From Eledone cirrhosa (lineage: Eukaryota): a stretch of 64,000 nt of DNA. The stretch covers positions 3,038,001 through 3,102,000 of the forward strand of contig OZ024766.1 in assembly GCA_964016885.1 (NCBI GenBank), in the 5' to 3' direction. This document shows positions 1 to 52,657 of this stretch, piece after piece. Position 1 is the stretch's first letter, and each line of letters opens with the position of its first letter. A model generated the notes under the pieces. It worked only from the letters and a program-made list of their open reading frames with translations. It was not told the origin of the DNA and did no database searches. A program made the position numbers and the translations under genes.

Positions 1-53
1 TTTTATTATACATATTTCGGATGTACAACAGTACGTCCTCATCAGACAAAATA
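1..53 (-). ncRNA. Minimal type I hammerhead ribozyme motif
   Basis: Minus strand reads ttttgt-CTGATGA-GGACGTAC-tgtt-GTACATCC-GAAA-TATGTA-TA-ataaaa: full core, 8-bp stem II with one mismatch, short near-palindromic stem III, AUA cleavage triplet, stem I ttttgt/ataaaa. Confidence 0.8.
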
Positions 54-194
54 TGATACATGACATACCCTGAGATGTTAAATGGTTAAGATTGATTAAA
101 TCTTAACCATTTAACATCTCAGGGTATGTCATGTATCATTATATTTTATCTGATGAGGACGTACTACTGTACCTCTGAAAGATGTATAATAAAA
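1..194. repeat. Fold-back palindrome (arms about 93-96 bp, loop about 5 nt), probable Penelope-like terminal repeat remnant; may extend past the window edge
   Basis: 1-93 is the near-exact reverse complement of 99-194 (e.g. gacataccctgagatgttaaatggttaagatt / aatcttaaccatttaacatctcagggtatgtc). Confidence 0.92.
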
Positions 195-196
195 TT
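143..196 (+). ncRNA. Hammerhead ribozyme motif, more degenerate arm copy
   Basis: attttat-CTGATGA-GGACGTAC-tact-GTACCTCT-GAAA-GATGTA-TA-ataaaat; core intact, stems II and III carry mismatches. Confidence 0.62.
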
Positions 197-1227
197 TAAT
201 TGATCCAAAGAACATCTATTTTATTAATATCTGTATTTTAATATATATAACTCTGGAAAATTATTTTTTCTTGTAGAGTGCTTCCAATCTACTGTAAAAC
301 TCATTCTTTGATGTACTCATTGAATCTTGTTTAACTCTTTAATATATATATATATATATATATATATATATATATATATACAATGATATTATATAAATGG
401 AAACTATATTTATAAAACCATATTTATTCTATTATATATATTTCAATGGTACCAAAAATTTATCTTATTACATTACAACAGGTTGTAAGTATATAAATAT
501 CTATATAGATTAATAATTGTGCAAGTATAAGTATTACTGGTGATTTTATAGAAATAGAAAAAGCCACAATTATTAGTTGTTTATATTTCTAATATGAGTT
601 TCGAAGGATATTGATTTTGTATTTTCCATTAAAAAAAAACAACACGTAGTTCAAGTTGCAAGAAGAGAACAATTTGTAGATTCAAATATTTTGTTCCAAC
701 ATTGAAAATGTTTTCAGAATATTGTTAATTTACCGAAGTTATATAGTTTATCATACAAGTTATAATATTTATGTTTGCCCGACTGAAAGGAAAGGGAAAA
801 AATAACTCCAATCTTGTTTGTTAACCGTTAAATTTGATGAATGATTTACTCATAAATATATAGAGAAAATTATATATTATTTTGTGTGAGATTAATTTTT
901 CAAGGATGAGAGTTTCAATTGTATATTATTTTAGTCTAAAGATGTGTGCAAGTTTAAAGATCAAAGAAGAGGAAAAAAGTATTGTGCATTTAGAAGAACT
1001 ATCGTAAAGAGGATAACTTTCAGAATGTCAATTAAAGATTATCAATCTACATCTAAAAAAAAAAAAAATAGATTTAGAGGAGTGTCATTAAGAAAATAAT
1101 GTCAAATGTTAAAAATATTAAAATATTAAAATTAAGGAAGATCATTTAAAACAATTAAAATTTTTAAAGAAAATACTCAGTAAATAATAGGATCATTTTA
1201 AAGGTGTATCAGATATAGTCAAATGTA

Positions 1228-48477: not shown

Positions 48478-49832
48478 ATATATATAGTCATCATCTTCAA
48501 AGAACTAGACTACCCATATCAAACAAGGTTACTTGCCAGATGAGATCAAGGTCCTGTCTGCTTTCCTCTCGCCAAAGACTTTGCCAAGTATATTCTAAGA
48601 ATTTTAAATTATGTTGTTTCTAAAGATGGATTTTCTTCTCCAGCTCATTCACCTTCACTGTACAAGTATTTGCATAGATTCATTAAAACTTCTATCAAGA
48701 TAATATTGCTATATATGGTGATAATAAGAGACATTTAGATGAGAAAATGAAAAGTTGAAATGACTGACTTGACAAATTCCTCAAATATAAATCTTTTATT
48801 AACAACCCAGGGATTGAAATTTAGGACATACATAAAATTTATATAATGAATTACAAAAAAATAAAATGATTTCAAAAAGAAACAAACCAATACAAATAGA
48901 TATGAGAAAGAAGACACTCTCCTTCAATTATACACTACAGGGAATGTGTTTGAGGCACTCTAAATATTTCTTGAGGCCAGTGACAGTATTATGTCATGGG
49001 ATAGAGGGTCCCTCAATTATACACTACAACAGGGAATGTGGGTGAGGCACTCTAAATATTTCTTGAGGTCAGTTACAGCATTATGTCATGGGATAGAGGG
49101 TACCTCAATTACACACTACAACAGGGAATGTGGGTGGTGCCAAAAATAAAATTTAAGAAGACAACTATCAGATATGAGAATAACTTTAATCACATTTAAA
49201 AATAAAATTAAAAAAATAAAGCAATATTTAGAAGCTGTAGAAATACTAAGAGTTTCCTTGTGATATTAGTTGACAATAAGTTTATATTTGTAAGATGAAG
49301 GACATGTTACATTGCCAAGTTAAAATGTTTGTTTGTTTTTCTCTATTTAAGTCACTGGTAGGGCTTTCATCAGAGTCTCTTCTCTTCTGTGCATTTAAAT
49401 TACTGCTACAGACAAAAGATTTCCCACACATTACACATTTGAAGGGTTTTTATCCAGTGTCTGATCTTTTATGAATATTTAAGTTACCAATAGTGACGTG
49501 AGATTTAACCCATATTTCACAATGAAAGAGTTTCTCTCCTGTATGAATGTATTTGTGATTTGTTAAGTGATCCGAACGAGAGAATGATTTACCACAGATA
49601 TGACAGAGGTGTGGCTTCTCTCCTGTATGTATATATTTGTGTTTAGCTAAGCTACTTCACTGCGGGAATAACTTACAACAGTTATCAGTGATGAGGTTTC
49701 TCTCCTGTATGAATATGTATGTGTTCAGGTAAGTGACATGACAGTGAGAATGATTTACCACAGACTTCAGTGATAAGGTTTTTTTCCTGTATGACTATAT
49801 TTGTGTTGAGTTAAGTGATGATTTAGAGATAT

Positions 49833-50894
49833 TTATTTACCACAGATATCACATTGATAAGGCTTCTCTCCTGTATGAATACGTATGTGTCTAGTTAAGT
49901 GACCATTTCGAGAGAATGATTTACCACAGATGTCACAGTGATGAGGCTTCTCTCCAGTATGACTATATTTATGTACAGTTAATTGACCTGACTGAGAGAA
50001 TGACTTTCCACAGATATCACAGTGATGAGGCTTCTCTCCTGTATGGCTATGTTTATGTACAGTTATTTGACCTGACTGAGAGAATGACTTTCCACAGATT
50101 TCACAGTGATAAGGTTTTTCTCCTGTATGACTGTATTTATGTACAGTTAAACTACTCGACACAGAGAATGACTTACCACAGATTTCACAGTGATAAGGTT
50201 TCTTTCCTGTATGAATACGCATATGTTGGGTTAAGCTACTTGATTGAGAGAATGACTTACTACAGATATCACAGTGATAAGGTTTCTTTCCTGTATGAAT
50301 ATATTTGTGTATTGTTAAATGACCTAACTGAGAGAATGATTTATCACAGACATCGCAGGGATACGGTTTCTCTCCTGTATGACTACGTTTGTGTTTGGTT
50401 ACACCACTTGTACAAGAGAATGATTTACCACAGATATCACATTGATGAGGTTTCTCTCCTGTATGACTATATTTGTGTTGAGTTAAACTACTTGCCTGAG
50501 AGAATAACTTTCCACAGATATCACAAGGATAAGGTTTCTCTCCTGTATGAAGACGTATGTGTTGAGTTAAGTGATCATTTCGAGAGAATGATTTACCACA
50601 GATATCACAGGGATGAGGCTTCTCACCTGAATGAAGACGTATGTGTCTAGTTAAGTGATCATCTCGAGAGAATGATTTACCACAGATATCACAGGGATGA
50701 GGTTTCTCTCCTGTATGAAGACGTATGTGTCTAGTTAAGAGATGATTTCGAGAGAATGATTTACCACAGATATCACAGTGATACGGTTTGTCTCCTGTAT
50801 GAATACATATGTGTTGAGTTAAGTGACCAGCTTCAGAGAATGATTTACCACAGACATCACATTGGTATGATGATTTTTTGTTGTTCTTTGACAT
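49833..50894 (-). CDS. C2H2 zinc-finger protein ZNF-6, 12 complete fingers plus half finger
   Basis: 353-aa ORF MSKNNKKSSY...; ends CDICGK-TAA inside finger 13. Confidence 0.87.
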   Translation of the reverse strand: MSKNNKKSSYQCDVCGKSFSEAGHLTQHICIHTGDKPYHCDICGKSFSRNHLLTRHIRLHTGEKPHPCDICGKSFSRDDHLTRHIRLHSGEKPHPCDICGKSFSRNDHLTQHIRLHTGEKPYPCDICGKLFSQASSLTQHKYSHTGEKPHQCDICGKSFSCTSGVTKHKRSHTGEKPYPCDVCDKSFSQLGHLTIHKYIHTGKKPYHCDICSKSFSQSSSLTQHMRIHTGKKPYHCEICGKSFSVSSSLTVHKYSHTGEKPYHCEICGKSFSQSGQITVHKHSHTGEKPHHCDICGKSFSQSGQLTVHKYSHTGEKPHHCDICGKSFSRNGHLTRHIRIHTGEKPYQCDICGK

Positions 50895-52585
50895 CTCTTC
50901 AGGAAAAAAATATTTTCCACAGCAGAAAACAAGGATGTTTTTTCTTGGTCTTCTTTTTATAGTTTATTCCTAACAAATATTTTCAAAGTTAAATTTCCAT
51001 CAACCATTATCTTTGTTGACATCTGAAAATGATACAAAATCCTTTATAGATTTACCCAAGTTTAATAAGAATACTATATCTTCTTGTACACTTTCCAGAT
51101 AGTGAGGAGATAAATTATTTAATGAACCTCAGTTCAGAAGAAATATTTCACTATAAGTCACCAAATGCTGACATAAAAGGACTTATATGAATACTGTGTA
51201 AAATCTTGTGTTTGTTTTTGAAAGATGATATTGTTGATGTATCTGAAGTTAAAATTTCTCTTCTGTCATGTGATATTCTGAAATAGCAGAGAAAACAAAA
51301 TCAGTGTGTTTCATTATGTATTTCTGGCAATACCATAACATGACCCTCCCCAAATATAACAATATATATATATACATGTACAGTAGTACATGTATTAGAA
51401 TCTTTAAAGTACATCACTAAATGAAACAGTACTATACAGCACCATTATAATATAGCAGAAATAAAGATACCTGTTTAATAAGTTATTTTTATCTGTGATA
51501 CACACACAAATAATTATGACCTTATGTAATGGAATTATGAGTATCGTTCCTTCCAAACCTTCCCATGCAGTTCAGAAAATTATGTTTTTTTCCTATGGTG
51601 TTTGTTGTATTTTAAACGAATCTGACCTTCAAAGACACCAAAACCAATAGGAACACATAAATTTTACCCCCAAAGGAAGACAGCTAGTTCTTCACAGTAT
51701 TACAACCTTACTAAGTACAAACGACGTTAAGAAAACATGCGAAAAATAATTGCCACCAGAGAAACCTCCAAGGTTCCCACCTGCTCAGTTTCCTAGAAAA
51801 TGAGTCGTTTCTGACTGATTTTGAGGTTAGGTTTGTTGGAAACACGAAAAAAACTAGGAAAAATTAACAAGTTCCCACCTGACGACTGACAGGTGGTTTT
51901 ACTGTAAATTTACCTTAAATTAAAACAGATTTAGGCTAAAATGTAGACAGTTTTAATTTACCTAAAACAACAAAGTACAGCTGAATATAAACTACATATT
52001 ATAATACAAGGTAGTGAACATGATTAAATAGACGGAGGTAATTTAAATAATAAAGACACTCATAATAACAATATATTTTATATCACATGTAACAGTAGAA
52101 TCTAGCTATTGTAAAATAAGACAACATTTCAGTCTAGAAGTATTTTCCTGTATATAAAAGTGACGAGGAAGAAATATGTCCAAAGTTGTTAAATATTTTC
52201 ACTTGTATATAATTACTGTATCGTTGAAAGGTTCACATAATTCTATTATTTACACACATTATTATAGACTTCAAGTAAATCTTTCTCAACTTACCCTCTT
52301 CACATGTAATCAATGTGTTGTCTTCTTATATTGTATTAAACAAAGAAATAATCTCCTTGTTGTTGAATAAGAATTTTCAATGATTTTATCAGCTTTTCTT
52401 TGTCCGCCATTAACGTTGGTGTATCTTCTTATTCTTTAGCCACAGATTCGTATCTTGTCACGATGAAGCTGTTAAGCTAGATTTCTTTGTTTAAGGTATA
52501 TGTTCCTCGTTGTCTTTCCCAATTGTATGTGTTTATATATATATATATATATATATAAATAAATATAGACATAAACGTAATAAAA

Positions 52586-52657
52586 ATATATTTTATTATA
52601 TATATTTCGGAGGTAATGTGCTGTTTTTTTCAGTACGTCCTCATCTGATAAAATATA
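52586..52657 (-). ncRNA. Hammerhead motif with U4-to-A core change
   Basis: atatattttat-CAGATGA-GGACGTA...TACCTCC-GAAA-TATATA-TA-ataaaatatat; same family as 1-53. Confidence 0.58.

Follow-up and report, generated by a model that had tools for sequence, protein, structure and literature searches.

Type I hammerhead motifs in a zinc-finger cluster of Eledone cirrhosa: probable 3′ ends of Penelope-like elements and a likely non-LTR retrozyme

The hammerhead motifs scattered through a zinc-finger cluster of Eledone cirrhosa (contig OZ024766.1, positions 3,038,001–3,102,000; this 64,000-nucleotide stretch is called the window below) are most probably, for the greater part, type I hammerheads at the 3′ ends of Penelope-like elements (PLEs) lying in (TA)n as 5′-truncated and inverted copies, with one family (C) as an ORF-less unit that likely borrows its enzymes; we give this reading a probability of about 0.88. 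The motifs represent eight dispersed multi-copy repeat families (A–H), and the copy-number search suggested in an earlier note on this DNA returned 955–2,959 first-look candidates in each search. That hammerheads accompany PLEs is already known, and the literature also contains motif pairs on opposite strands as well as a hammerhead-bearing Hydra element from Octopus.

The earlier note listed twelve hammerhead-like motifs (its title spoke of about eleven), and all 12 are present where it placed them, on the same strands. It had argued against chance, and descriptor searches with shuffled controls agree. In 100 block-wise dinucleotide shuffles a strict hammerhead descriptor matched 0.03 times on average, compared with three matches in the window; the figures were 0.18 and five for a relaxed-core descriptor. 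Once stem I was permitted to contain an internal loop, the window yielded seven complete type I hammerheads versus 0.01 in shuffles (maximum 1), namely those at 1-53, 143-196, 8711, 24408, 24549, 29704 and 46611. Sampling of 600 kb outside the window yielded 34 motifs versus none in five shuffles, and a 34-nt motif of family C has 1,104 exact copies in the genome versus none for the control pattern read backwards. The window has 35% GC, and several unrelated CTGANGA…GAAA strings occur within zinc-finger exons, as might be expected if the motifs were accidental matches in AT-rich, repeat-rich DNA; a chance origin is nevertheless refuted by the shuffles and retains practically no probability. 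With a stem I of at least 5 bp as the descriptor cut-off, the CUGANGA/GAAA/UH core and stems I–III are found in seven of the 12 and in minimal form in family E, while the motifs at 14608, 52586, 29887 and 37435 fail; the five that do not pass thus comprise one minimal hammerhead, two broken cores, one truncated motif and one without stem I. The Rfam hammerhead model, proposed as a check, gave no match at the gathering score in 10 loci, and in an Rfam E-value search of the window no listed motif was among the best 150 of 431 matches, where (TA)n matching miRNA models dominates. The output of a repeat search of the window was likewise dominated by (TA)n.

At the left edge of the window, the family A insertion (1..341, both strands) is an inverted pair of Hydra-type PLE 3′ ends that starts about 60 nt further to the left, with hammerheads at 1-53(-) and 143-196(+) and a tail on the right arm only, followed by (TA)n; in the motif at 143-196 there is a mismatch beside A15.1–U16.1, and the stem III segment fails to cofold. 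Family B is represented by a single 3′ end on the plus strand (8657..8832), whose hammerhead (8711-8778) has a perfectly palindromic stem III, and family H by a 3′ end on the minus strand (52553..52716) with a U4>A change in the core of its hammerhead (52586-52657); ten near-identical H copies follow to the right of the window, one every 6–8 kb. Family B is about 71–77% identical to A around the motif; B and H are sister families of A, having hammerhead and tail sequence in common with it. The family D insertion (24270..24671, both strands) is an inverted pair of young Hydra-type PLE 3′ ends with hammerheads at 24408-24467(-) and 24549-24608(+), a 98-nt tail on the left arm only and (TA)n flanks. 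That of family G (46469..46858, both strands) is also a Hydra-type PLE 3′ end, combining a hammerhead at 46611-46681(-) with an inverted arm at 46734-46858(+) that lacks the 5′ core and was absent from the earlier list. Family C occurs twice: as a minus-strand fragment (14515..14711; tail piece 14275-14342), whose hammerhead at 14608-14657 is likely dead given the C3>A change in its core, and as an insertion (29587..29916, both strands) with a complete hammerhead at 29704-29753(-) and an inverted copy at 29851-29916(+). The motif at 29887-29916(+) in the latter was rightly described as truncated, since it ends before the cleavage site. The same description of the family F motif at 37435 was too simple: this repeat end (37410..37516, plus strand) has a core and stem II at 37442-37465 without stem I, and the family runs about 80 nt further to a TA end. 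Stem I could be formed in none of 15 F copies examined (of 20 loci). A second, more decayed and truncated F piece on the plus strand (46911..46961) is a further addition to the list. Finally, the family E 3′ end (30451..30627, minus strand) comes from a Neptune-like PLE and ends at (TA)n; its minimal hammerhead (30546-30584) has a 4-bp stem I, below the 5-bp cut-off, and an ACGU stem III.

The earlier note saw no RT or GIY-YIG partner in the window, and a tblastn search with 13 PLE protein pieces of the same genome confirmed this (best E 0.32). The linkage to Penelope ORFs for which it proposed a search does exist elsewhere in the genome, where A, D, G and E run upstream into an ORF encoding RT plus a GIY-YIG domain at the C-terminus, on the same strand as the hammerhead. 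Alignment from the nuclease ORF to the hammerhead is unbroken in 20/39, 8/39 and 28/39 other scored copies of D, A and E, respectively. In L106 the G sequence follows the ORF at a distance of 1.25 kb downstream, and in L109/L305 it stands directly upstream of the ORF (two loci being the basis of the G linkage). Partial tandems forming pseudo-LTRs were found for D (L297, L306 and L307), A (L299), G (L305) and E (L343), bearing out the view that type I hammerheads with palindromic stem III lie in PLE pseudo-LTR sequence. Partial tandems of D run from one hammerhead through 48 nt, the TA site, the 98-nt tail, 79 nt, the ATG, the ORF and a 3′ UTR of about 2.2 kb to the next hammerhead, with a hammerhead-to-hammerhead spacing of 5,040–5,046 nt; the spacing in A is 4,222 nt. 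Families B, F and H showed no ORF continuity in the examined loci; upstream of B, shared sequence extends for up to about 500 nt, with no ORF in L347/L348. A 743-aa ORF in L335 was rejected as the parent of family F because it is part of a different young family, whose sequence ends 550 nt past the stop of that ORF.

The proteins of D, A and G match the genome's Pfam-positive RT plus GIY-YIG ORFs with an hhalign probability of 99.2 (E 3e-19). Pfam did not recognise the Hydra-type RT, and a PDB sequence search with its profile returned nothing meaningful. The D, A and G proteins carry DKT, CxCX5C, CxxC and CxH and lack CCHH, which are features of the Hydra clade described by Craig et al. (2021; PMC8557442) and shared by Hydra-1_Obim of Octopus bimaculoides, in which the GIY-YIG domain is also C-terminal. 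Insertion into (TA)n, a hammerhead near the 3′ end, partial tandems, inverted 5′-truncated copies and a tail at one end are likewise common to these PLEs (PMC8557442). A, D and G are accordingly termed Hydra-type, an assignment made by protein motifs and insertion into (TA)n. There are also differences from the published clade (PMC8557442): the N-terminal motif, RWK in Hydra, is RWR in D, RWI in G and interrupted in one A copy (it is RWK in the homologue P0006); the tails are about 90–100 nt long in A, D and G, versus the 30–40 bp stated for PLEs; and the tendency to lengths below 3 kb does not extend to A and D, whose units measure 4.2 and 5.0 kb with 3′ UTRs of 1.2–2.2 kb. The hammerhead sequences differ from that of Hydra-1_Obim, and several families coexist in one genome at high copy number. 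The parent of family E has an RT, a CX4CxxC linker and a CCHH-containing GIY-YIG domain, and the minimal hammerhead follows no more than about 400 nt further on, an arrangement shared with Neptune-clade PLEs. Judged by a CX2-5CxxC linker together with CCHH in the endonuclease, both of which it has, this parent appears Neptune-like, the Nematis linker being similar. The first GIY-YIG search retrieved Neptune-like elements with hammerhead families other than those of the window.

No copy in the window reaches 450 nt or contains an ORF, and inverted pairs resembling hairpin elements make up five of the insertions, features that would also suit independent protein-free retrozymes or MITE-like hairpin elements merely sharing hammerheads with PLEs; family C, moreover, is truly ORF-less. 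For D, A, E and G this explanation is refuted by the continuity with an ORF in many copies, and as an account of all families it is improbable. The distance between cleavage sites in inverted pairs varies from 71 to 1,432 nt, unlike a fixed MITE, and the 5′ ends of D are scattered from −12 to beyond −1,500. (TA)5 lies at most 420 nt from the cleavage site in 54/58 D, 30/33 A, 49/50 G, 38/50 C and 18/21 E copies, and copy ends near (TA)n fall into two classes per family. A tail is present on exactly one arm in most inverted pairs of D (10/13), G (13/14), C (5/8) and B (4/5); 17 of 30 family A pairs are tailless on both arms, in a search whose pattern also caught H copies. Since the window copies are 5′-truncated, often form inverted pairs and lie in (TA)n, most of them are remnants of protein-coding elements. 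The proposal of protein-free Penelope-like or retrozyme-like remnants therefore stands for C and fails for A, D, G and E, which are truncated 3′ ends of coding elements.

Non-LTR retrozymes are taken here to be ORF-less head-to-tail units of 150–450 nt and less than 50% GC, of which at least two carry a complete type I hammerhead. The family C unit is ORF-less, 435–444 nt long and has a GC content of 0.39, and head-to-tail dimers with both hammerheads intact occur in L333 (444 nt) and L334 (437 nt), with units of 435–438 nt. Its predicted circular MFE is −143 to −160, versus about −94 to −100 (sd 5–6) for 20 mononucleotide shuffles of each unit (4 of 5 units folded), so that the circle is predicted to be highly self-paired. 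Family C is thus likely a non-LTR retrozyme, and it is the only one of the eight families shown to be ORF-less and retrozyme-like. It shares with animal non-LTR retrozymes (PMC7229834; Li, Clavereau and Pollet preprint 10.64898/2026.07.22.740005) the absence of an ORF, the type I hammerhead, head-to-tail dimers, 39% GC, a predicted self-paired circle and coexistence with PLEs. Unlike them, it is present mostly as scattered monomers, as partial tandems and as inverted pairs that carry a 35-nt tail of the PLE type, and no array beyond the dimer was present among the first 100 of the 1,104 places. The search for an enzyme donor identified none, and the 35-nt tail points to a source other than A, D and G; Hydra ORF fragments near C were rejected in L111, where the orientation is opposite, and in L119, where a (TA)32 run lies in between. 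Contigs from three sequencing runs, compared with a C unit, yielded nothing about expression. A literature search found no cephalopod retrozyme in print, supplementary motif lists being outside its reach.

The 34 motifs in the 600 kb sampled elsewhere correspond to about 57/Mb, or one per 18 kb, which by extrapolation would give about 170,000 motifs in the whole 3.0-Gb genome. Thousands per genome have been published (PMC4209133), a comparison affected by differing descriptors. The density in the window, 109/Mb (interval 44–225), is not separable from the 81/Mb of other small chromosomes, and the zinc-finger cluster is therefore not supported as a specially enriched setting. This result also weighs against a co-option of the hammerheads for processing or regulating transcripts of the cluster. 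Seven of the 12 listed motifs do lie on the minus strand, as do the zinc-finger exons, and one H copy has been multiplied along with a tandem gene unit; however, the core of the amplified H copy in the window is broken, and the duplicated gene units differ in insertion positions, which makes such a role very improbable. For the most part, the copies in the window are probably carried along inertly with the cluster.

Comparison among diverged families shows that the core, stem I and the palindromic stem III are kept while stem II changes in sequence and length. Of 173 A/B/G/H-type motifs, 157 have a stem III hexamer that pairs with itself over its full length (variants TATATA, TATGTA and TGCGCA), and the self-complementary segment covaries between families. 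Formal covariation among 13 motifs is weak, with two pairs showing double changes and a score reached by 22 of 500 shuffles. Within families, core and flank conservation are 0.98 and 0.96 in A and 0.955 and 0.952 in E; it is lower for the cores of B and H, a comparison in which GAAA was mislocated. As the core is barely above the flanks, individual copies show little sign of selection. Single-strand MFE folds of the window copies mostly lack the hammerhead fold, and C and D have an A·A mismatch at the base of stem II, where mismatches (U·U) are also frequent in Hydra hammerheads (PMC8557442 supplement). Family E matches the published consensus of minimal PLE pseudo-LTR hammerheads (Cervera and de la Pena 2014, PMC4209133), whereas A, B, G, H, C and D have a longer stem I and a longer palindromic stem III (7–10 nt). 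Many heterogeneous families, mostly solo motifs of truncated PLEs, opposite-strand pairs about 100–700 bp apart, a palindromic stem III and an extra nucleotide before stem II are shared with that set (PMC4209133).

The in vivo role of PLE hammerheads has been called a mystery (PMC7761336). Under the preferred reading, a tandem or read-through transcript would contain two hammerheads that pair via stem III and cleave in dimeric form, setting free an RNA of unit length, which would likely be circularised. The GIY-YIG nuclease and reverse transcriptase that an element itself encodes would likely carry out insertion into (TA)n, and family C would likely be mobilised by borrowed PLE-type enzymes. 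Reverse transcription, primed at nicked (TA)n and starting 50–150 nt downstream of the cleavage site, would cross the intact ribozyme and usually abort or switch template within a few hundred bases, leaving solo and inverted-pair remnants such as those in the window. Lunse et al. in 2017 reportedly described dimer cleavage.

The same PLE origin may instead involve a linear, uncleaved transcript as template and no circular intermediate, the hammerheads cutting rarely or serving otherwise (limiting read-through or aiding priming), a real possibility to which we assign less than an even chance. None of 30 D copies picked by tail sequence begins at the cleavage site (nearest −12), so that 5′ ends set by this site are unsupported among them, and of the four copies reaching the ATG three run through the upstream hammerhead and one starts from the tail junction; intact hammerheads in all of these are explained by an uncleaved template too. 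The low in vitro activity of minimal PLE hammerheads (PMC4209133) and the cleavage of only one of nine dimers in the preprint of Li et al. (10.64898/2026.07.22.740005) point the same way. Against this, the retention of core, stem I and palindromic stem III across families that differ in stem II fits selection for cleavage, circles are known from related retrozymes in coral, mussel and axolotl (PMC7229834), and C is predicted to fold as a stable circle.

The discovery itself is modest, as PLE pseudo-LTR hammerheads, solo and opposite-strand remnants, Octopus Hydra elements and PLE-derived retrozymes have all been published. Its value as a resource lies in a young, nearly intact Hydra-type family, D, with precisely defined ends and ribozyme position, in the candidate retrozyme C from a group with none found reported, and in the density estimate of one motif per approximately 18 kb over a 3-Gb genome. 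At its most far-reaching, the finding would represent the densest animal hammerhead load yet noted (about 57 per Mb and 170,000 motifs, roughly ten times axolotl), arising from long-3′ UTR Hydra-clade PLEs that move via circular RNA produced by their hammerheads, and accompanied by a cephalopod-type retrozyme not previously reported (family C), which would give an abundant 440-nt circle; taken as a whole, this is speculative and rather unlikely. If true, the circular intermediate long proposed for PLE transposition would become directly testable in the near-identical young D copies, with their defined hammerhead–tail–ATG layout. D and C are good substrates for testing dimer cleavage and circular intermediates.

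All 12 hammerhead motifs listed in the earlier note were found in the window (35% GC, in a genome of 3.0 Gb and 1,796 contigs), and they belong to eight dispersed repeat families: A (1–53 and 143–196), B (8711), C (14608, 29704 and 29887), D (24408 and 24549), E (30546), F (37435), G (46611) and H (52586). As the earlier reading had anticipated, chance does not supply them: a strict descriptor gave three window matches versus 0.03 in shuffled sequence (100 shuffles), a relaxed core gave five versus 0.18 (100 shuffles) and permitting an internal loop in stem I gave seven versus 0.01. 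Five listed motifs miss the loop-permitting descriptor, namely the minimal hammerhead at 30546, those with core substitutions at 14608 and 52586, that at 29887, which stops short of the cleavage site, and that at 37435, whose family lacks stem I in 15 of 15 copies among those listed. The suggested Rfam check did not recover the motifs, window-type sequences falling below the gathering level at the ten loci scored, and the formal test for stem covariation is only suggestive, with 96% of cells paired over 13 motifs, yet 22 of 500 shuffles equalling the score. Stem III is palindromic: among 173 motifs of the A, B, G and H types, 157 have a hexamer complementary to itself throughout (mainly TATATA, TATGTA and TGCGCA), and dimer cofolding of stem III segments is predicted for B, C, H, G, D, A1 and E and not for A2. 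Families A, B, G and H have stem I and the frame of stem III in common, their differences lying in stem II. Copies of one family are hardly better conserved in the core than in the flanks, a pattern to be expected of insertions that decay neutrally.

The window also holds seven C2H2 zinc-finger exons, all on the minus strand, long (TA)n runs and, among the exons, four non-PLE LINE reverse-transcriptase fragments (54815–57529 on the plus strand; 53452–55536, 1615–3051 and 9091–9849 on the minus strand), two of which give RVT_1 matches. A zinc-finger cluster together with AT microsatellites is in keeping with an octopus-like cephalopod. A tRNA-like match (Rfam, 30.8 bits) at about 8517–8575 on the minus strand (L143:1363-1421), adjoining family B, is probably a tRNA-derived SINE, and a minisatellite array at 6521–7671 produces long spurious open frames.

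In genome searches each of families A–H is scattered across many chromosomes, with copy counts that are lower bounds (40 candidates scored per search). Numerous family D copies are 100% identical across 176 nt, and this family is therefore young. To the right of the window (contig OZ024766.1, 3103278–3165407; loci L184–L193), ten family H insertion copies, 97–98% identical and spaced 6–8 kb apart, were apparently multiplied by recent tandem duplication of a zinc-finger gene unit. With the loop-permitting descriptor, sixty evenly spaced 10-kb stretches (600 kb) gave 34 matches versus 0 in each of five shuffles, corresponding to 36/Mb on the four large chromosomes, 81/Mb elsewhere and about 171,000 motifs when extrapolated to the genome; the overall Poisson interval of 39–79/Mb is too narrow because matches come in pairs, and the true interval is wider. 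The window density of 109/Mb (44–225) is not separable from this sample. At least eight more hammerhead families, none in the window, occur in the sampled DNA (L203–L262). Using other descriptors, PMC7229834 reported 126,247 motifs in axolotl (28 Gb according to part of the Li et al. preprint), over 6,000 in coral and about 5,000 in mussel.

The earlier note described the motifs as protein-free Penelope-like or retrozyme-like remnants, and the window indeed holds no RT/GIY-YIG partner: 13 Penelope-like element (PLE) protein pieces from the same genome gave zero matches in it. Flanking sequence of longer copies nevertheless leads to parent ORFs. For family D, a 3.3-kb query that starts in the nuclease domain and includes the hammerhead aligned without a break to 20 of the 39 other copies scored (93–98%); ORF-to-hammerhead queries were unbroken in 28 of 39 scored copies for E and in eight of 39 for A, about nine further A copies differing by one 350-nt deletion. 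The family G hammerhead sits 1.25 kb 3' of the ORF at one locus (L106); at two others (L109 and L305) it precedes the reading frame by about 200 nt. No ORF link was found for B, F and H. The family D protein is an 815-aa open frame with relatives in A and G, in which Pfam recognizes no domain bar a sub-threshold GIY-YIG match for A; their profile aligns with the RVT_1 and GIY-YIG ORFs of the genome with a probability of 99.2. These proteins contain DKT, RWR/RWI, CxCX5C, CxxC and CxH and lack CCHH, thereby sharing the features (DKT, CxCX5C, CxxC and CxH without CCHH) that section 11 of PMC8557442 gives as diagnostic for the Hydra clade. The CX4CxxC linker and CCHH of the family E parent make it Neptune-like.

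Other PLEs were encountered in the same genome. A very young family (L335:3178-5406, minus strand, plus about 550 nt downstream; about 40 scored copies at 99–100% identity) has a 743-aa RT and GIY-YIG frame with a poly-Asn N-terminal region and partial tandems, and no canonical CUGANGA core was seen at its 3' end. Hammerheads with the U3–A8 core variant (UUGANAA), as described in Schistosoma, lie on Neptune-like PLEs and another family (L041, L042, L046, L050 and L052; also L205 and L234), and a different Neptune-like family (L044, L045, L048 and L054) carries a compact hammerhead with a GUAC stem III about 380 nt past the ORF.

Partial tandems of family D (L297, L306 and L307) run in the order hammerhead, 48 nt, TA site, 98-nt tail, 79 nt, ATG, ORF, long 3' UTR and hammerhead, with hammerheads 5,040–5,046 nt apart (L306 and L307); the spacing in A is 4,222 nt. 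Each family has two end classes (D +48/+146, A +52/about +150, G +43/+132 and C +140/+175), and the ends adjoin (TA)n in most copies. Exactly one arm of an inverted pair carries the tail in 10 of 13 pairs for D, 13 of 14 for G, 5 of 8 for C and 4 of 5 for B; the A counts (one arm 13, none 17, both 0) are unreliable, as the pattern also caught H. This layout agrees with the tandem, inverted and tail arrangement of PLEs described in part of PMC8557442. Among 30 D copies chosen by tail sequence, 5' ends range from −12 to beyond −1,500 from the cleavage site and none (0/30) lies exactly at it, and of four D copies reaching the ATG three run through the upstream hammerhead and one begins at the tail junction. 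The ribozyme was therefore whole in the template that was copied, whether it had escaped cleavage or been re-ligated.

Alongside the observed linkage to ORFs, element anatomy, (TA)n targets and palindromic stem III, we infer that tandem transcripts may be cut by hammerhead dimers, the released RNA would circularize, priming would occur at (TA)n, and early truncation with template switching would follow. Circularization is favoured over an uncleaved linear template at roughly 60%. According to PMC4209133, which also proposed circular templates for PLEs, minimal PLE hammerheads cleave as dimers and with low activity; retrozymes yield circles (PMC7229834).

Family C is a candidate non-LTR retrozyme, with the genomic features by which the Li et al. 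preprint (10.64898/2026.07.22.740005) defines such elements. Its units are 435–438 nt long, 39% GC and without an ORF, and their predicted circular fold is about 50–60 kcal/mol below mononucleotide shuffles (four units). Upstream sequence ends at a fixed head in every case; an own-family tail immediately precedes about 14 of 22 heads among those listed, the others being preceded by inverted pieces or flank. A 34-nt motif is matched exactly at 1,104 places in the genome versus 0 for the control; within the first 100 of these places, two pairs lying on one strand are head-to-tail dimers of 444 and 437 nt. A short (TTAGGG)5 run lies near the insertion, downstream of the C dimer at L333, distant from the chromosome end.

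Literature searches combining hammerheads or retrozymes with Octopus, cephalopods and Penelope found no published cephalopod retrozyme and no published density of this kind; sections of PMC6962438 give 235 Rfam hammerheads in giant squid, and the parts of PMC13282606 concerned with Penelope-like elements annotated in O. vulgaris leave ribozymes unmentioned. PMC4209133 describes genomes that each have many hammerhead families, with solo motifs left by truncated PLEs and with pairs on opposite strands separated by 100–700 bp, PMC8557442 lists Hydra-1_Obim (Octopus bimaculoides) with a hammerhead, and the Li et al. preprint treats PLE pseudo-LTRs as the source of retrozymes. The elements of E. 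cirrhosa are further representatives of these already published kinds.
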